DNA from: a virus
Reading direction: 5' to 3' (one strand)
Length of the DNA stretch: 28,719 bases
Virus record (IMG/VR): IMGVR_UViG_3300045988_150762
Span: 1 to 28,719 of that record
Position 1 is the first letter of the stretch. Every line of letters starts with the position of its first letter. A program made the position numbers and the translations under genes. The notes under the pieces are model-generated. The model saw nothing but the letters and a program-made list of their open reading frames with translations, ran no database searches and was not told the DNA's origin. Positions 1 to 28,719 of this stretch are shown piece by piece.

Positions 1-55
1 TGCCACAGAAAAAAGTTCTGCCTATGCCACAGAAAAAAGTTCTGCCTATGCCACA
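1..55. repeat. Terminal overlap identical to 28665..28719 (circular-assembly signature)
   Basis: Exact 55-nt identity read directly: t + 2 x GCCACAGAAAAAAGTTCTGCCTAT + GCCACA at both ends. Confidence 0.95.
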
Positions 56-3648: not shown

Positions 3649-5354
3649 GAATTATGCAGGAGAGCGACAAACAGAGATTAAGAGAAGCAAAAGAGGCTTG
3701 TATTTGTAGGTTGCGCGGCGTTGACTTTTTGGCGTACGAATATGCAACAAACGAAACAGACCCCCGTATTAGTGAGTATATTCTGGGGTGTATGTCTGAC
3801 ACTGACGGACACAACTTTTTTGAACTTCTTGCGATAGAGCAGTTCTTCAGGAAGTTGGACAAGTACGAGTGGAGGGGGAAAGAGGTGCAGAAGTTCTTTG
3901 CCTTTTACGAGCGTATGAGGTTCAGCGGAGCGAATGGCCGACAGCGTTACAAACTTACTCCTGTACAGTGTTTCCAGTTCGCAAATATTTTCGGGTTTTA
4001 CAGCGACGGAAAACGGCTCACAAAGGACGTACTTCTTTTTGTCCCGCGGAAGTATGGAAAAACAACATCTTGCGCAAGTCTTGCGGTATATGATTTACTT
4101 TTCGGGGACAATAATGCGCAGGCCTACGTTTGCGCCAACGATTTCAATCAAGCGAAGATATGTTTCGATGAAATTAGGCACATTGTAATGGACTTTGACC
4201 CAGGAATGTCAGCCTTTAAAGTCAACCGTGAAAAAATTTTTTGTAAGATGGCAGGGCGCGAGAGTTCCGCAAGCTGCCTGACGAGTTCGGCAAACACAAA
4301 GGACGGACTGAACGCAAGCTTGGTAATATTAGACGAGTACTCACAGGCGAAATCAAGCGAGTTAAGAAACACCCTTATCAGCTCCATGGGCGCAAGGGTG
4401 CAGCCTCTTGTAGTTACAATCACCACAGCAAGCGACAAAATTAACGCCCCTTTTTATGCGGAGTTAGAGGGCGTAAAGCGTGTTTTGCTTGGAGAAGTGG
4501 ACAACGATGCGTTATTTGCTCATTTGTTTATGCCAGACGTTGACGACGAAGAGAGCGACGAGCGTACGTGGCGCAAGGTTCAGCCACATATCGGGGTAAC
4601 TGTACAAAAAGATTATTATTTACAGTACTATAAAAGGGCGCTGACAAATGCCGATGACATGTTGACGTTTCGCACGAAGCTTTTAAACGTGTTCGCCGTA
4701 AATGAGAAGCAGGCATGGTTCAGCCGTGATGAGGCGGAGCGGATATTGAAAGATTTTAAGGTAGAAGATTTTAAAGGCTTGGCTTGTCTGTGCGCTTTTG
4801 ACCTGTCTGTAAAAGATGACTTTTCCGCAGTCTGTTATACTATATATTACAACAAAAATTTTTATTGTGATATTCGCTATTATTTCCCCGAGGGGCAGTT
4901 GGACACGCATCCAAATTCGGAGCTTTACAAAGCGTGGGCGGCTGATGGGTATCTGACTTTGTGCAAAGGTAAATGCATTGACTACAACCAAATTGCAAAC
5001 GACATTCTTAAAGTTGCGAAAACGGTAAAAATAATAGAAATCGGATATGATAACTACAAAGCGGGGGATTTGGCCAGCATTCTGGGCGCCCGAGGCGGTA
5101 AAAGCTATTTGAAAGCATATCCGCAGACATACGGGGCTTTTAATATGCCTGTAGAAGTATTTACAGGCATGGCACTCACAGACCCGCCGCGGGTGTGGTT
5201 GAATAACAACCCTATAAATGTTTTCTGCCTGACTAATGCCATATTGGACGAGGACAGAATGGAGAACAAAAAACCCATTAAGCCCTCGCAGTATAGAAAG
5301 GTAGATGGTGTTATTTGTGTGCTGATGGCATTAGGCATGGCGAAAAAATTATAA
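3645..5354 (+). CDS. terL: Terminase large subunit
   Basis: Walker A PRKYGKTT, Walker B LVILDEY, C-terminal nuclease-like D..S..D segment, ~565 aa. The start is either GTG 3645 or ATG 3654. Confidence 0.95.
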   Translation: MRIMQESDKQRLREAKEACICRLRGVDFLAYEYATNETDPRISEYILGCMSDTDGHNFFELLAIEQFFRKLDKYEWRGKEVQKFFAFYERMRFSGANGRQRYKLTPVQCFQFANIFGFYSDGKRLTKDVLLFVPRKYGKTTSCASLAVYDLLFGDNNAQAYVCANDFNQAKICFDEIRHIVMDFDPGMSAFKVNREKIFCKMAGRESSASCLTSSANTKDGLNASLVILDEYSQAKSSELRNTLISSMGARVQPLVVTITTASDKINAPFYAELEGVKRVLLGEVDNDALFAHLFMPDVDDEESDERTWRKVQPHIGVTVQKDYYLQYYKRALTNADDMLTFRTKLLNVFAVNEKQAWFSRDEAERILKDFKVEDFKGLACLCAFDLSVKDDFSAVCYTIYYNKNFYCDIRYYFPEGQLDTHPNSELYKAWAADGYLTLCKGKCIDYNQIANDILKVAKTVKIIEIGYDNYKAGDLASILGARGGKSYLKAYPQTYGAFNMPVEVFTGMALTDPPRVWLNNNPINVFCLTNAILDEDRMENKKPIKPSQYRKVDGVICVLMALGMAKKL

Positions 5355-6774: not shown

Positions 6775-6900
6775 ATGAAGAAGAAATTGCCGAGTGTCGC
6801 TACGGCGACAATTCAGTATTTCACGGACGAGGGCAACGTTATTGTTAAAACGTCCGGCGGCTCTGTAGCTCTGTATTTTGATGATATAATGAAACTGTAA
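6775..6900 (+). CDS. Possible 41-aa small ORF
   Basis: ATG 6775 to TAA 6898-6900 (MKKKLPSVATATIQYF...), lying between the cassette and its terminator. Too short for the ORF track. Confidence 0.3.
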   Translation: MKKKLPSVATATIQYFTDEGNVIVKTSGGSVALYFDDIMKL

Positions 6901-20235: not shown

Positions 20236-20597
20236 GGGGTATTTTTTTGTTTATTGTTTTGGGGCTGTGGCTGTCCTCATGCAAAACAAATGAGGTTGTA
20301 AAAGTTGTGCCTGATGTGCATTACAAAGACCAAATACAATTACAGCATGATAGCGTACATGTCCATGATAGCGTATTTAGTACTATTTACGTCCGTGGTG
20401 ACACTGTTTTTTCCGAGAGGTACAAATATAAGTACAAAATAAAATACCGCCTAAAATACGACACTGTAAGCGTAAGAGATAGTATTCCCTACCCTGTTGA
20501 GGTTGTAAAATACAGAACAAAGAAAAACGCGTTGCCGTGGTGGTTGTTAAGTGTTATGTTCGTCGTGTTGTCCATAGTGCTGTGCCGACGGTCATAA
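20232..20597 (+). CDS. Unimolecular spanin candidate (lipobox plus C-terminal TM)
   Basis: N-terminal FIVLGLWLSSC lipobox and C-terminal WWLLSVMFVVLSIVLC TM helix. ATGA overlap with the endolysin gene. Confidence 0.5.
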   Translation: MRGIFLFIVLGLWLSSCKTNEVVKVVPDVHYKDQIQLQHDSVHVHDSVFSTIYVRGDTVFSERYKYKYKIKYRLKYDTVSVRDSIPYPVEVVKYRTKKNALPWWLLSVMFVVLSIVLCRRS

Positions 20598-20605
20598 ATA
20601 CAAAA

Positions 20606-20647
20606 ATATGCTTGATAGTTGCGAATGACTAACAAGCATATTTTTTT
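20606..20647 (+). terminator. Rho-independent terminator at the end of the late operon
   Basis: ATATGCTTG (20606-20614) / CAAGCATAT stem followed by a T-run through 20647. Confidence 0.75.
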
Positions 20648-20677
20648 GAAGAAAGTGCTAAAAACTTGATAAACAAC

Positions 20678-21636: not shown

Positions 21637-22839
21637 ATGAAAAAAGAAAGAAAATTTGCATCGGAGGGGCTAATGGGCGGAGACGCAACAGACAACCCCA
21701 AATTAATGTACAGGGCATTAGAGAACGGAAAATTAAGCCTTTTTCTCGTTTATTACTATGGGTACAAAAAAGTAAAAGACGAAAAGACGGGGGCGGAGAA
21801 GATAAAGCACTTCCGAAAAAAAGAGACACTGAAATTATATGTTTTCGCTGACCCTATCAATACGGAGGAAAGACAATATAATAAAAAAGTTCTCATGCTT
21901 GCTAAAAAAATACGGTTTGAGCGAGAACAGGAACTGCTTGAAAATCGGGAGGGCTACAGATTGCAAAGTGACTTCAAAATAAATTTTTTCGATTATTTTC
22001 AGCACTATGTGGACGAGTGGAGAACGGAGAAGTCTCCGCGGCCGTTGAGGCTTGCGTTGAAGCTGTTCAGAGAATTTATCGGCGGTTCTGTCAGATACTG
22101 CCAATTTGAGGGCAATCTTGAACCTAACCAGATTACCCCCGAAATGATTAGGGATTTTACGAGGTTCTTGCAAGATAACTGTATAGGGACGGGGGCGGCT
22201 ACACACTACAAACGTTTTCGGAAAGTCATAAACTATGCCGTGGATAACGGTGTTATAAAGAAAAATCCATGCGAAAAGATTACAGTAAGAGAGGGACAGC
22301 AGAAAATGAAAGACTTTTTGTCGGCTGATGAGGTGCGGACGTTAGCGAAAACACATTATTTGGGTGAGAACCCTGTTATAAGGAGGGCGTTTTTGTTTTC
22401 CTGCCTTACGGGGTTAAGGTGGTGCGATGTCTGCGCCCTGACGTATGACAATATAGACTACGCTAACAACGTTTTTAGGTTTGTACAGATGAAAACGGAC
22501 AAAGAAATGACCATGCCATTGAATGACACGCTTCTGGGGTTAATAGAAGAACCACACACAGCACAACCCAGCAAGGAGAAAGTTTTCCCCCTGCCAAGCT
22601 TCACAATGTGCCTGAAAGCGTTGAGGCATTGGACGGCAAAGGCACGTATACACAAGCATATAACGTGGCACTGTGCCAGGCACTCGTTTGCTACACAATT
22701 AATATCTAATGGCGTTCATGAGCTTACTGCAGCCAGACTGTTAGGACATAGCAGCCTTAAATATATAGGGGTATACGCGCGAATGCTTGACGAGGACAAG
22801 CGCAAGGCACTGAACACCCTGCCCACGTTAGAACTATAA
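21637..22839 (+). CDS. int: Tyrosine recombinase / phage integrase (Bacteroidetes type)
   Basis: LTGLRWCDV (Arg), HCARHSFAT (H-x-x-R-H), LLGHSSL, and YIGVYARM (catalytic Tyr region). N-terminal LFLVYYYGY arm-binding-like segment. Confidence 0.95.
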   Translation: MKKERKFASEGLMGGDATDNPKLMYRALENGKLSLFLVYYYGYKKVKDEKTGAEKIKHFRKKETLKLYVFADPINTEERQYNKKVLMLAKKIRFEREQELLENREGYRLQSDFKINFFDYFQHYVDEWRTEKSPRPLRLALKLFREFIGGSVRYCQFEGNLEPNQITPEMIRDFTRFLQDNCIGTGAATHYKRFRKVINYAVDNGVIKKNPCEKITVREGQQKMKDFLSADEVRTLAKTHYLGENPVIRRAFLFSCLTGLRWCDVCALTYDNIDYANNVFRFVQMKTDKEMTMPLNDTLLGLIEEPHTAQPSKEKVFPLPSFTMCLKALRHWTAKARIHKHITWHCARHSFATQLISNGVHELTAARLLGHSSLKYIGVYARMLDEDKRKALNTLPTLEL

Positions 22840-23413: not shown

Positions 23414-23791
23414 TTATTTCCCTTTGAGTAGTGCTATAATTTCGTCTTTGTCCCTTAAACGTTCTTCTAACGTTCTGATTAGTTTTTCTTTATCGTCGAG
23501 CGCTTCTTTAAGGCGTGCAACTTCTGCCGCCAGCACTGTACTTTCTCCACGCTGCACTGTGCTTTTTATGTTGTTGCTATTTCCGTTTGCGATATTCCCG
23601 CTATTCTGGGTAATGTTTACAGGCGAGGGGGCGCCCATTAGCTCGCCTAATATTAGGCTTTTTGATTGCGGAATATTCTTTCCGTACTCCCAGTTTTGTA
23701 TGGTTTTAGGGTCTACACCTATCATTTCCGCAAGCTGTTTTTGCGTTAAGCCCAATTTTTTTCTAATATTTTTAATATCTAAAGCATTCAT
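23414..23791 (-). CDS. XRE-family HTH repressor (CI-like) with C-terminal coiled coil
   Basis: IKNIRKKLGLTQKQLAEMIGVDPKTIQNWEYGKNIP is a textbook HTH_3 motif. The gene is divergent from the early operon. Confidence 0.85.
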   Translation of the reverse strand: MNALDIKNIRKKLGLTQKQLAEMIGVDPKTIQNWEYGKNIPQSKSLILGELMGAPSPVNITQNSGNIANGNSNNIKSTVQRGESTVLAAEVARLKEALDDKEKLIRTLEERLRDKDEIIALLKGK

Positions 23792-23823: not shown

Positions 23824-23943
23824 ACGGAATATTTCCACGTAATTTCTATTGTCAAACACGGAAAATTCCGTACTTTTGCATTGTAATTTAAAAACAAAAG
23901 CAAATACAAATACAAAAGTAACAATTTTAAAATAAATAACAAA
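23824..23943. promoter_or_regulatory. Immunity switch: operator-like dyads plus two opposed consensus promoters
   Basis: O1 is ACGGAAtatTTCCaCGT (23824-40) and O2 is ACGGAAaaTTCCGT (23858-71). The + promoter is ATTG (23848-51)-19nt-TACTTTTG (23871-78). The - promoter is TTTG (complement of 23940-43)-19nt-TACTTTTG (complement of 23913-20). Confidence 0.55.
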
Positions 23944-23946
23944 ACA

Positions 23947-24330
23947 ATGAAAACGGAAATTGTATTTTTTGAATTAAACCGACATAAGAGAGCAATTCGC
24001 CAGTACGCAGAAGTTATAGCCGCCCTTGCTCCACGCTCATCACACGCATACGTGATGGCAATTGACAAAAACAACGAACCTTTATGGGTGGTACAAGCTG
24101 GTGACCAACATGCGGCGATGGCAATCAGCTGGAAAGGCGTTCGCATGGTTGTGGCCCAATCGCTCGACAAAGAACACGTGTATATACGGGTATATCTTGC
24201 CTCACAAAAACAAATGGCCGAATACATGCGCGAATGCGTGAAAGCAAGAAGAAACGGAGCTGAATTCATCATTGCAGAGAATAACACGCAGAATAACACA
24301 CAATATCACGTATCAGACGGAAAAATATAG
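23947..24330 (+). CDS. Hypothetical first early protein (127 aa)
   Basis: First ORF of the rightward early operon. No HTH recognised. Confidence 0.55.
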   Translation: MKTEIVFFELNRHKRAIRQYAEVIAALAPRSSHAYVMAIDKNNEPLWVVQAGDQHAAMAISWKGVRMVVAQSLDKEHVYIRVYLASQKQMAEYMRECVKARRNGAEFIIAENNTQNNTQYHVSDGKI

Positions 24331-24353
24331 AAACAGACATAAACAACAAAACA

Positions 24354-24485
24354 ATGAAAAACAAAGTCTATTCATTTTACAGCTTGAAAAATAGAACGTT
24401 CATTCAAGTAATCGCAAAAAACAAAAAGCACGTGAAATTATATGCAAAAAAACACTTAATGAAAATCTACAATTATATGAAATAA
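24354..24485 (+). CDS. Possible 43-aa basic small ORF
   Basis: ATG 24354 to TAA 24483-85 (MKNKVYSFYSLKNRTFIQVIAKNKKH...), filling an otherwise empty gap. Confidence 0.3.
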   Translation: MKNKVYSFYSLKNRTFIQVIAKNKKHVKLYAKKHLMKIYNYMK

Positions 24486-24580
24486 CTATACTGCGCACTG
24501 CTAACAGTCAACAACAGAGCATCGAAAAGACCTATCCAGAAATATTCTAATGTAATATAAAAACAGACAAAGGCAAAACA

Positions 24581-24910
24581 ATGACAGCTATAAAACTGAC
24601 ACAAGCAGATATTGACGCTATAGCCAACGCCGTTGCAAAGAGGGTGTTTAGCGCAAAATTGGCGGAGGAAAAAGAATTCCTCACCCCCGCCGAGGCTGCC
24701 CAATTTTTGCAGAGGCCGTTAAGCGCTATCTACAAAATGACGAGTGCAAAGATTTTGCCGTACTATAAGGCGGGAGGGTTACGTTTCAGGCGGACAGAGT
24801 TAGAGAACTGGGCACGTAGTCGTAGAGTAATGACCAATAAAGAGTTAGACAGGCAGACGGACACGGAAGCGGCTTTGTATTGTATGAACAAGAAAAATAA
24901 AAGGGTTTAG
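24581..24910 (+). CDS. Excisionase-family / MerR-like HTH DNA-binding protein (Xis/AlpA-like)
   Basis: FLTPAEAAQFLQRPLSAIYKMTSAKILPYYKAGGLRFRRTELENW fits the HTH_17 pattern. Confidence 0.75.
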   Translation: MTAIKLTQADIDAIANAVAKRVFSAKLAEEKEFLTPAEAAQFLQRPLSAIYKMTSAKILPYYKAGGLRFRRTELENWARSRRVMTNKELDRQTDTEAALYCMNKKNKRV

Positions 24911-24917
24911 GACCCTG

Positions 24918-24962
24918 GGCGGCGCGTCTGCACCGAATAGTCATTCGTGCCGCCTTTTTTTT
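24918..24962 (+). terminator. Terminator-like hairpin, repeat unit 1
   Basis: GGCGGCG...(CGAAT agtc ATTCG)...TGCCGCC followed by 8 T. Confidence 0.5.
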
Positions 24963-25024
24963 AGAAAACATTAAAGTCTAACAAATAAAAAAAAGAAGAA
25001 AAATATCGAAGGTTTAGGACCCTG

Positions 25025-25068
25025 GGCGGCGCGTCTGCACCGAATAGTCATTCGTGCCGCCATTTTTT
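25025..25068 (+). terminator. Terminator-like hairpin, repeat unit 2
   Basis: Same hairpin as unit 1, followed by A plus 6 T. Confidence 0.5.
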
Positions 25069-25130
25069 AGAAAACATTAAAGTCTAACAAATAAAAAAAA
25101 GAAGAAAAATATCGAAGGTTTAGGACCCTG

Positions 25131-25174
25131 GGCGGCGCGTCTGCACCGAATAGTCATTCGTGCCGCCATTTTTT
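25131..25174 (+). terminator. Terminator-like hairpin, repeat unit 3
   Basis: Same hairpin as unit 1, followed by A plus 6 T. Confidence 0.5.
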
Positions 25175-25289
25175 AGAAAACATTAAAGTTTAACAAATAA
25201 AAATTACAAGAAAAATGATTAAAAAAGCAGACGCATTTGTATGTATTAATACAGTTATAATAATGCAATTTGCCTGTCTGTATGCAATT

Positions 25290-25321
25290 TGAACAAGAAA
25301 CAAAAAAGTAAACACTATGAA
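25290..25321 (+). repeat. Direct repeat copy 1 flanking the hexapeptide-repeat gene
   Basis: TGAACAAGAAACAAAAAAGTAAACACTATGAA, matching 26006-26041 apart from a 5-nt indel. Confidence 0.85.
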
Positions 25322-26024
25322 AAAGTATAAACTAACAGATGAAACAATGCTATTTCGTGGCAGAACTCTGCATCGTATTGTTGCACTCCGTGATTTTAAC
25401 GACGTTAAAAAAGGTGACAAGGGCGGTTGGATAGAAAAAGAGGAAAATCTATCGCAGGAGGGTGAATGTTGGGTCTTTGACAATGCGCAAGTCTATGACA
25501 ATGCGCAAATCTTTGGCAATGCGCGGGTCTTTTACAGCGCAAAAGTCTTTGACAATGCGCAAGTCTATGGCAGCGCGCAAGTCTATGACAATGCGCAAAT
25601 CTTTGGCAATGCGCGGGTCTTTTACAGCGCAAAAGTCTTTGACAATGCGCAAGTCTATGGCAGCGCGCAAGTCTATGACAATGCGCAAATCTTTGGCAAT
25701 GCGCGGGTCTTTTACAGCGCAAAAGTCTTTGACAATGCGCAAATCTTTGGCAATGCGCGGGTCTTTGGCAATGCAATAGCCGGTGGTGATGCAGAAATAT
25801 CTAATAAAGCAGACTACATCGTTTTCAAAAATTGGTGGTCATCTGGAAGGTACTTTACGTGGACTCGAAGCAACAATATGTGGTCAGTTGGTTGCTTTTA
25901 TGGCACTGGAGATGAGCTAATAAAAAAGGCTTATGAAGACAGCGAGGACAAAGGTAAACATTACGAGGAGATTGTGGAGTATGTTAATAAGTGTGTTCTG
26001 AAAAATGAACAAGAAACAAAGTAA
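25317..26024 (+). CDS. Hexapeptide-repeat (left-handed beta-helix-like) protein with conserved N- and C-terminal domains, function unknown
   Basis: ~19 consecutive hexads (VFDNAQ, VYDNAQ, IFGNAR, VFYSAK, VYGSAQ...). The N-terminus is LHRIVALRDFNDVKKGDKGGWIEKEENLSQEG and the C-terminus is WSVGCFYGTGDELIKKAYE. Confidence 0.8.
   Translation: MKKYKLTDETMLFRGRTLHRIVALRDFNDVKKGDKGGWIEKEENLSQEGECWVFDNAQVYDNAQIFGNARVFYSAKVFDNAQVYGSAQVYDNAQIFGNARVFYSAKVFDNAQVYGSAQVYDNAQIFGNARVFYSAKVFDNAQIFGNARVFGNAIAGGDAEISNKADYIVFKNWWSSGRYFTWTRSNNMWSVGCFYGTGDELIKKAYEDSEDKGKHYEEIVEYVNKCVLKNEQETK
25473..25775 (+). repeat. Perfect 90-bp tandem repeats (about 2.8 copies) on an 18-bp sub-period, inside the CDS
   Basis: GTCTATGACAATGCGCAAATC recurs at 25491, 25581 and 25671, with the intervening sequence identical. 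Confidence 0.95.
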
Positions 26025-26041
26025 AAAGTAAACACTATGAA
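26006..26041 (+). repeat. Direct repeat copy 2 flanking the hexapeptide-repeat gene
   Basis: TGAACAAGAAACAAAGTAAAAAGTAAACACTATGAA. It covers the end of the upstream CDS and the start codon of the next gene. Confidence 0.85.
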
Positions 26042-26258: not shown

Positions 26259-26323
26259 AACATTTTGTTTGTTGTTAATATATTATTTTAAGATTGTTAA
26301 GCTGGTGTCGTGATGACACCTGA

Positions 26324-26421
26324 TGCGGCGAGCATTCGCAGTGGCGAACGGGCTACATTCATTAAGGTTAAATTTTTTCATCGTTAAACTTTTTTTTGGG
26401 GTTCGAGTCCCCACGTCGCAC
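26324..26421 (+). ncRNA. tRNA-like element (acceptor stem plus T-arm, no canonical anticodon arm)
   Basis: The 7-bp acceptor pairing is TGCGGCG (26324-30) / CGTCGCA (26414-20). The T-arm is TGGGG-TTCGAGT-CCCCA (26397-26413). A D-like hairpin TTCG-CAGTGG-CGAA is present. The middle ~45 nt is A/T-rich with a GTTAAAyTTTTTT direct repeat. Confidence 0.45.
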
Positions 26422-26435
26422 TAAAGGTTAAAGAC

Positions 26436-28383: not shown

Positions 28384-28719
28384 ATGGTAAGAGATAAATT
28401 CACGTTCTATGCCGACTGGGTAGAGGCGTTGCGCATTCTACCGCCAGAGGATTTCAAGGCCGCTTTTATGGCAATGGCAGAGCTGGCATTATATGATAAA
28501 GCGCCGCAAGATACGTTACAAGGTTTTTCCGCTGTGGTGTACTCTATGGCCGAGCGTCAGCTTGTCAGCAACGCAAAGCGGTATGACGGAGCACAAAAGG
28601 GAGGTGTGTCTAAAGCGCTAAGGCAATGCCACCATGGCAATGGCACAGAAAAAAGTTCTGCCTATGCCACAGAAAAAAGTTCTGCCTATGCCACAGAAAA
28701 AAGTTCTGCCTATGCCACA
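28384..28719 (+). CDS. N-terminal part of junction-spanning replication-associated protein (continues at 2..577)
   Basis: AGGAGG lies 4 nt upstream of ATG 28384. MVRDKFTFYADWVEALRILPPEDFKAAFMAMAELALYD resembles an N-terminal domain I recall from Bacteroidota phage/plasmid replication-module proteins. There is no stop before the window end. Confidence 0.7.
   Translation, partial: MVRDKFTFYADWVEALRILPPEDFKAAFMAMAELALYDKAPQDTLQGFSAVVYSMAERQLVSNAKRYDGAQKGGVSKALRQCHHGNGTEKSSAYATEKSSAYATEKSSAYAT
28642..28719 (+). repeat. 24-bp tandem repeat, 3 units plus 6 nt, coding (G/A)TEKSSAY
   Basis: GGCACAGAAAAAAGTTCTGCCTAT followed by 2 x GCCACAGAAAAAAGTTCTGCCTAT and GCCACA. The last two units are also seen at 2-55. 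Confidence 0.95.

Follow-up and report, generated by a model that had tools for sequence, protein, structure and literature searches.

A threefold tandem array of a conserved terminator-like hairpin cassette in the early region of a temperate phage genome

Why would a phage carry three nearly identical hairpins in a row directly behind an early regulatory gene? This question is raised by a tandem array at positions 24888-25216 (+ strand) of the IMG/VR virus record IMGVR_UViG_3300045988_150762, a stretch of 28,719 nucleotides (nt) that was analysed over its whole length and is subsequently designated the window. The array is located between a gene of the excisionase family (HTH_17 gene) and a gene encoding a YdcK-type beta-solenoid protein. 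Judging from sequence, each unit of the array is probably a cassette that works in the sense RNA of the early operon as an intrinsic (Rho-independent) terminator or attenuator, and the array would represent a lineage-specific amplification of this cassette.

The initial annotation of the window had described three tandem, near-identical units consisting of a hairpin and a T-run, which was confirmed by Tandem Repeats Finder and by an exact count of the hairpin core. Tandem Repeats Finder reports a repeat at 24890-25216 with a period of 106, 3.1 copies, 95% matches and a score of 582. Alignment of the units resolves the array into three 106-nt units plus a closing 11-nt junction repeat. The 37-nt core GGCGGCGCGTCTGCACCGAATAGTCATTCGTGCCGCC starts at 24918, 25025 and 25131 and has no further site in the window, even when 3 mismatches are allowed; at the same tolerance shuffled sequence yields 0 copies. 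The T-runs at 24955, 25063 and 25169 comprise 8, 6 and 6 residues, respectively. The unit starts given earlier (24904, 25011 and 25117, with periods of 107 and 106) are correct. In their natural register, the units are bounded by A[C/G]AAGAAAAAT at 24888, 24994, 25100 and 25206. The array is composed of the following features:

24918..24962, + strand: unit 1, 37-nt hairpin (24918-24954) followed by T8 (24955-24962)
25025..25068, + strand: unit 2, 37-nt hairpin (25025-25061) followed by A and T6
25131..25174, + strand: unit 3, 37-nt hairpin (25131-25167) followed by A and T6
24888-24898 and 25206-25216 (ACAAGAAAAAT), 24994-25004 and 25100-25110 (AGAAGAAAAAT), + strand: junction microhomology of 11 nt, from sequence reading and short BLAST matches

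Units 1 and 2 are identical in their hairpins and tails and differ in T-run and head, while the sole difference between units 2 and 3, up to the point where the tail of unit 3 diverges, is C/T at 25089/25195. The stretches between the hairpins are identical among the units, which indicates duplication of whole units. The heads of units 2 and 3 read AAAAATATCGAAGGTTTAGGA, and the end of the HTH_17 gene reads AAAAATAAAAGGGTTTAGGA. The stop codon of this gene (24908-24910) falls inside the head of unit 1, and the hairpin of unit 1 begins 8 nt past it. It had been proposed that unit 1 starts on the stop codon; the overlap is real, but the codon lies four nt inside the unit. Similarly, the array had been interpreted as a threefold duplication of the 3' end of the gene. 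This is right only in part, since the heads of units 2 and 3 do not simply repeat this gene end: they match the cassette head of another phage group (contigs L017, L019 and L021) at 21 of 21 positions and show 4-5 differences from the HTH_17 3' end.

Since tandem repeats may be collapsed or mis-expanded during assembly, the copy number itself had to be considered. Three units are present only in the window and in the ENA scaffold ERZ28576245:scaffold_978. Both are short-read metagenome assemblies of the same strain (99.9-100% identity) and hence do not represent independent biological replicates. Moreover, the second assembly is circularly permuted, and its break falls exactly within the array: unit 1 is the last unit before its end, and its start lies in a unit tail with two more units behind. 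However, three distinguishable unit variants, namely T8 with C, AT6 with C and AT6 with T, are found in both assemblies, and at least three units must exist because the combination of A at 25062 and C at 25089 is unique to unit 2. If the count is wrong, it can only be too low. The array has at least 3 units, short reads leaving room for more copies of unit 2, and we regard an assembly artefact as very unlikely.

The array has single-copy counterparts in related phages. The HTH_17 protein falls into one 90% cluster comprising 32 sequences, and about 25 contigs encoding members of this cluster (L003-L015 and L030-L037) were examined. All of them have one hairpin in a gap of 72-78 nt after the HTH_17 gene. 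Here, the hairpin is followed by T5-T7 and by an A-rich leader of ~25 nt extending to the next ATG, which usually belongs to a Bro-N/ANT antirepressor-type gene. The triplication is specific to the lineage of the window. Further searches remained without result: BLAST of region 24300-25400 against GenBank phages (‘distant’ mode) returned no match, nor did the exact hairpin sequence in IMG/VR or the degenerate hairpin pattern in GTDB representative genomes. IMG/VR protein searches with the HTH_17 protein and with a 286-amino acid (aa) protein encoded farther downstream in the operon revealed no related loci, and a scan of IMG/VR with a 17-nt half-site detected chance matches within genes, plus contig L021, and nothing more.

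In the + strand sense, the predicted minimum-energy fold of the hairpin consists of a G/C-rich stem of 9 base pairs (bp; GGCGGCGCG/CGUGCCGCC), a 2x2 internal loop and a short bulged apical stem, with a free energy of -19.7 kcal/mol. With one extra closing pair, the value is -21.8 kcal/mol (z = -3.5 against shuffles). The 9-bp stem comprises 7 G-C pairs and 1-2 G.U pairs, and together with the apical stem it reaches -18 to -20 kcal/mol. This fold replaces the one drawn initially (7-bp stem, 9-nt bulge, 5-bp stem), which reaches -13.4 kcal/mol and is ~6-10 kcal/mol worse in every variant. In the commonest hairpin variant among the relatives, the + sense RNA is more stable than the - sense RNA by 5-6 kcal/mol (-18.3 vs -12.6 kcal/mol), because two of the stem pairs are G.U. 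In the centroid structure of the 350-nt array the units appear as three independent hairpins. The stem of the main hairpin is almost invariant, only C/U opposite G being variable, which leaves little for covariation. In most contexts a G/C mini-hairpin of 3-4 bp could form just 5' of the main hairpin (GGGU/ACCC, GGGG/CCUC, AGAG/CUCU or GGGC/GCUC); suggestive by eye, it was not recovered by RNAalifold. A scan of the entire 28.7 kilobases (kb) for hairpins with T-runs yielded about six comparably strong candidates on the + strand, three of which are the units of the array; with 5-8 U directly behind its stem, the hairpin belongs to the strongest class of such structures in the window. A simple scan for sigma-70 promoters and terminators does not pick up the array hairpins owing to their internal loop.

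Intrinsic terminators are defined by a U-rich tract of about 7-9 nt right behind the hairpin (PMC3993855), and Bacteroides uses terminators of this type (PMC7366714). The cassette has the corresponding anatomy: a GC-rich RNA hairpin; a U-rich tract, i.e. U8 in unit 1, A plus U6 in units 2 and 3 and U5-U7 in the relatives, the tracts of units 2 and 3 and those of some relatives being at the short end; and a position at the end of a gene with which it is co-oriented, all instances being on the gene-sense strand. Of the three functions suggested initially, stacked terminators or a transcriptional insulator therefore fit best, as the predicted terminator anatomy is on the + strand and placed between the HTH_17 gene and the rest of the early operon.

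The hairpin is not confined to the site behind the HTH_17 gene. By means of a degenerate pattern scan, it was also located after an 89-aa MutS_I-domain gene in contigs L017, L019 (= L021), L020 and L043-L045, after a remnant of such a gene in L016 and directly 5' of a YdcK homologue in L018. L018 and L020 denote two sites on one contig, OJNH01000355.1. These carriers have diverged from the phage of the window, with 23% identity between the integrases and 49% between the YdcK proteins, and at the nucleotide level the window resembles L019 or L016 in the cassette only. The hairpin is identical at 34-37 of the 37 positions in all contexts, and exactly the same 37-mer occurs in seven of them. Variation is restricted to one stem C/U opposite G, the apical loop region YGRR and two singletons. 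Across the contexts sharing the identical 37-mer, flanking genes are ~75-85% identical or unrelated. For L019 and L020, whose flanking genes are ~85% identical, our own arithmetic gives a chance of ~0.85^37, roughly 0.002, for an identical 37-mer. The instances are co-oriented with their flanking genes throughout (~30 of ~30) and the T-run is kept despite differing flanks; the A-rich tail shows no conservation outside the lineage of the window. By these comparisons, the hairpin is a conserved cassette common to several phages and sited at module breakpoints, which had been overlooked in the initial annotation.

These breakpoints are directly visible when carriers are compared. Homology of the window with L010 and L030 stops at 24967-24970, just past the T-run of unit 1, and resumes at 26025, at the end of the YdcK gene. 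The exchanged segment 24968-26024 stands where the relatives have the Bro-N/ANT gene. In L019, an extra gene of 356 nt (4144-4501), which is missing in L020, starts ~40 nt after the hairpin, and L016 keeps the 87-nt cassette alone, the genes on both sides being absent. In the window, the array is followed by a further trace of rearrangement:

25215..25292, + strand: truncated gene remnant, an open reading frame of 25 codons; positions 25212-25261 are identical at 49 of 50 positions to the 5' end of a 152-aa gene

In L017, the 152-aa gene is intact and lies immediately before the YdcK homologue, and the stump at 25215-25292 is, as read from this match, the deletion scar of a lost gene. In addition, an 18-nt direct repeat (AAAAAGTAAACACTATGA) comprising leader and start codon brackets the YdcK gene (25303-25320 and 26023-26040), which suggests that this gene was inserted or exchanged through short homology at gene leaders. 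Taking these features together, we infer that the region arose through recombination among copies of the cassette and through joins at short homologies. In the proposed scenario, the Bro-N/ANT module was swapped for the YdcK module by recombination at the cassette, and the cassette with ~55 nt of A-rich leader would then have been amplified to at least three tandem copies. The short direct repeats A[C/G]AAGAAAAAT may have mediated the amplification, either by slippage or by unequal recombination, and the event appears recent because the units are near-identical. The triple state is most likely a lineage-specific rearrangement scar rather than a conserved device, and there is no evidence that the number three itself is under selection.

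What would the cassette do at this position? The array lies ~1 kb downstream of the sole + strand motif of the early region matching TAnnTTTG, the -7 promoter consensus of Bacteroidota (PMC7366714). The relevant features are:

23414-23791, - strand: HTH_3 repressor-like gene
23871..23878, + strand: candidate early-operon promoter, -7 element TACTTTTG, fitting the Bacteroidota TAnnTTTG consensus
24581..24910, + strand: excisionase-family HTH_17 gene, 109 aa (Pfam HTH_17, 6e-12; phrog_66, excisionase/regulator; TIGR01764 ‘excise’, 30.4 bits vs a cut-off of 28.8)
25317..26024, + strand: YdcK-type beta-solenoid gene (Pfam B_solenoid_ydck; NF040481)

The HTH_17, phrog_66 and TIGR01764 matches support the earlier designation of the gene upstream of the array as Xis-like. 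In the rightward early operon, the order is 127-aa gene, 43-aa gene, HTH_17 gene, array, YdcK gene, 73-aa gene, 286-aa gene, small genes, VRR-NUC gene and DUF6291-like gene. From 23879 to the end of the window there is no TAnnTTTG on the + strand, the motif at 23871 being the last before the array. In the relatives, one such motif precedes the hairpin by ~820 nt, and most of them have none in the 4 kb behind the hairpin. In the window, divergent TACTTTTG motifs (23871-23878, +; 23913-23920, -) are present between the repressor-like gene and the early operon, and this arrangement looks like a lysis-lysogeny switch. As the short gap in the relatives cannot accommodate a promoter ahead of the next gene, their downstream early genes presumably rely on read-through. 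For this reason, and because no promoter motif follows later, a stop that is leaky or regulated is more probable for the hairpin than an absolute one. In the normal state, a single conserved hairpin with its U-tract right after the excisionase-family gene would partly halt transcription from the early promoter at ~23871. If the hairpin terminates transcription in vivo, as its anatomy suggests, three copies should terminate more strongly: terminators in series would cut read-through multiplicatively and thereby shield the acquired YdcK module by a tighter stop, or insulator.

Several points weigh against termination as the full explanation. Termination is predicted from the shape of the hairpin, and the U-tract is weaker in units 2 and 3, which have only A plus six U. 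If the replication genes need read-through, three strong terminators would be costly, in which case the array might be leaky or overridden, or a hidden promoter might reside within 25217-25316. Above all, a generic terminator requires only a stem and a U-tract, but in the cassette the internal loop, the bulge and most of the loop bases are likewise invariant across non-homologous contexts, which hints at sequence-specific recognition or at frequent gene conversion. The hairpin could accordingly be a sequence-specific RNA signal, i.e. the target of an antiterminator, a processing nuclease or an RNA-binding protein of phage or host, which gates the early operon in the manner of lambda N/tR1, and triplication would multiply this control point. 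Near-invariance of the 37-mer in diverged phages, unpaired bases included, would be readily explained in this way, as would the retention of the cassette by L016 despite the loss of the genes on both sides. The same holds for the need of the replication genes for read-through, as concluded from the lack of a second canonical promoter motif downstream in the window and in the relatives. However, this promoter argument depends on a single 8-nt consensus, and mosaic exchange or gene conversion could equally account for invariance, given that the phages share segments of 75-98% identity. Moreover, no candidate partner protein common to all carriers was identified, and the proteins of 127 aa and 43 aa encoded upstream have no family match in Pfam, PHROG or further profile searches. 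We therefore consider recognition by a specific factor possible but unlikely.

The units might also yield stable small RNAs, either derived from the 3' untranslated region or processed, which end at each hairpin and act in trans or as decoys, the array raising their dosage. Terminator hairpins commonly form the 3' ends of small RNAs of this origin, Bacteroides small RNAs ending at Rho-independent terminators have been documented (PMC7366714), and the mini-hairpin predicted upstream of the main hairpin, differing in sequence between contexts, could be part of such an RNA. But with 3-4 bp only it escaped RNAalifold, the A-rich tail is not conserved beyond the lineage of the window, the relatives have a single copy, and units 2 and 3 would be transcribed only via read-through of unit 1. 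Unit-specific promoters were rejected, as TAnnTTTG is absent from all units on either strand. There is also no Rfam family at the array, the sole match in the window up to E=5 being an unrelated chance match to the L20 leader at 6897. The earlier suggestion of three independent small RNAs is not borne out by these results, and small RNAs in general appear improbable to us. Still less credible is an element acting at the level of DNA, such as phased protein-binding sites, origin iterons, a partition site or a recombination site, even though the 106-bp period is near 10 helical turns, the hairpin has dyad symmetry and the array adjoins the gene of an excisionase-family DNA-binding protein. Phased binding sites, an origin or a partition site had likewise been proposed initially; multiplicity and phasing are not conserved, however, since ~25 of ~25 related contigs are single-copy, and an iteron origin or partition site was rejected on this ground. 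Furthermore, the T-run, which is obligatory, and the strictly gene-sense orientation agree with a function of the RNA, and the G.U pairs are mismatches on the other strand. A phage attachment site (attP) at the array was rejected as well: it is expected beside the integrase, where host genes abut in the integrated relatives L004 and L010. Two further candidates were dismissed. A CRISPR array or solitary repeat unit is not compatible with ‘spacers’ that are identical instead of unique. A type III toxin-antitoxin array would require a ToxN/AbiQ-type gene downstream, but this gene encodes a YdcK beta-solenoid; PADLOC found no match among the five neighbouring proteins, and no defence or toxin protein adjoins the array.

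Tandem-stacked intrinsic terminators are known, examples being rrnB T1-T2 and the serial tR terminators of lambda. Like these, the array has a GC-rich RNA hairpin with an immediate U-tract just past a stop codon, is co-oriented with its operon, and its serial copies would multiply termination efficiency. In contrast to rrnB T1-T2 and lambda tR, its copies are not independent terminators but near-identical duplicates including the 55-nt spacer. The hairpin also differs from typical intrinsic terminators in its unusual length (37 nt), its internal loop and bulge, and its conservation base for base between unrelated intergenic contexts. Lambda tR1 is an early terminator under antitermination control. 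The array occupies a comparable site after the first regulatory genes of a rightward early operon and ahead of replication genes, and the genes downstream likewise seem to need read-through. This likeness is positional only: no N-, Q- or put-like component was identified and no nut-like site defined. With ToxI-like type III toxin-antitoxin arrays and CRISPR-like mini-arrays, the array has in common that hairpin-bearing tandem direct repeats are located 5' of a protein gene in a phage, but it differs by its 106-nt units with identical ‘spacers’, by the single copy in relatives and by a YdcK protein without PADLOC or toxin match.

In its behaviour at the genome level, the cassette most closely resembles the promoter-early stem-loops (PeSLs) of T4-type phages, although as a molecular part it would be an intrinsic terminator. 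PeSLs are conserved terminator stem-loops found where modules shuffle (Arbiol et al. 2010, PMC2839356; Comeau et al. 2014, PMC4122927). Similarly, the cassette is a conserved intergenic stem-loop, predicted to be a terminator, which occurs in different gene contexts of a plastic early/accessory region. It is found at the breakpoints of insertions, deletions and replacements (24967 and 26025 in the window, 4144-4501 in L019, both sides in L016) and plausibly supplies homology for modular shuffling. Unlike PeSLs, neither the units nor the single-copy cassettes contain a TAnnTTTG promoter component, and in the relatives ~25 nt separate the T-run from the ATG. There are 1-3 copies of the hairpin per genome as compared to about 50 PeSLs; counted as sites, the cassette is present once in the window and in its relatives and twice in contig OJNH01000355.1. 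The carriers are temperate phages of siphovirus size with probable Bacteroidota hosts, whereas PeSLs are carried by T4-like myoviruses. The cassette is not known to form mini-circles. One could go further and regard the hairpin as a dedicated, sequence-specific attenuator, which a phage or host factor would have to recognise before the early operon can continue, and at the same time as portable homology for the exchange of early modules in temperate Bacteroidota phages, i.e. as a promoter-less PeSL counterpart, with the triple array being a shuffling intermediate. We view this extended model as rather doubtful.

The array is a tidy case of a known kind of element and not a new kind of system. 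If the units are indeed terminator cassettes, the array would be a clean natural example of phage regulatory punctuation that was duplicated and reused in module exchange, and it would offer a compact, probably strong terminator part for Bacteroidota, useful if unsurprising. The point of wider interest is the near-invariant hairpin at gene-flux breakpoints of several otherwise diverged gut phages. Should it be specifically recognised, it would open an experimentally tractable way into two poorly understood processes of temperate Bacteroidota phages, modular recombination and the control of early genes.

The window itself is the complete or nearly complete genome, ~28.7 kb in size, of a temperate phage. 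Its host is probably a member of the Bacteroidota, to judge from the promoter motifs, the domain set of the integrase and BACON-domain neighbours in integrated relatives. Searches of GTDB genomes with the integrase gave only matches of 23-45% identity in unrelated taxa. The integrase gene is located as follows:

21637-22839: integrase with Arm-DNA-bind_5 and SAM_5 domains

Within the YdcK gene, tandem repeats of 18 bp and 90 bp are present at 25473-25774. The protein has 235 aa in the window and 205 aa in the second assembly, which lacks one 90-bp repeat but is identical in other respects; the difference reflects either copy-number variation or assembly collapse. The 24-bp repeats at the two ends of the window (1-55 and 28640-28719) form one array, in frame, within the DUF6291-like reading frame, which encodes ~300 aa, runs from 28384 across the junction to 577 and contains at least five copies of an ATEKSSAY repeat. 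Since both the reading frame and the 24-bp array span the junction, the genome is circular or circularly permuted. The second assembly has an N gap at this array. By analogy to lambda O, the array of 24-bp repeats could possibly be an origin inside an initiator-like gene.

The second phage group has a stand-alone 89-aa MutS_I (PF01624) gene directly upstream of the cassette (L017, L019, L020 and L043-L047; e.g. L019 3770-4039). In L019, an 18-nt match to the 3' end of transfer-messenger RNA (tmRNA) adjoins the integrase gene (1341-1358, - strand) and may be the attP core for integration into ssrA. No transfer RNA (tRNA) or tmRNA was found in the window. The 178-nt gap before the 286-aa gene contains a tRNA-like structured element (26304-26422, + strand), which was not recognised by ARAGORN and Rfam. 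It comprises a small GUGA-type hairpin, a 7-bp acceptor-like helix (26324-26330/26414-26420), a D-like hairpin, an A/U-rich insert of ~45 nt and a T-arm with the exact motif GGTTCGAGTCC at 26400-26410. The element is also present in L017 (7754-7890, - strand), L019 (4934-5070), L043 (3246-3382), L045 (3551-3687) and L010 (5458-5594). The second phage group shows this architecture too, and its acceptor helix, D-like stem, T stem and first hairpin all carry compensatory changes. Finally, a palindromic hairpin with T-runs on both strands, TATGCTTG.TAGT...ACTA.CAAGCATA, is found at 20572-20648 and looks like a bidirectional terminator closing the late or lysis block.

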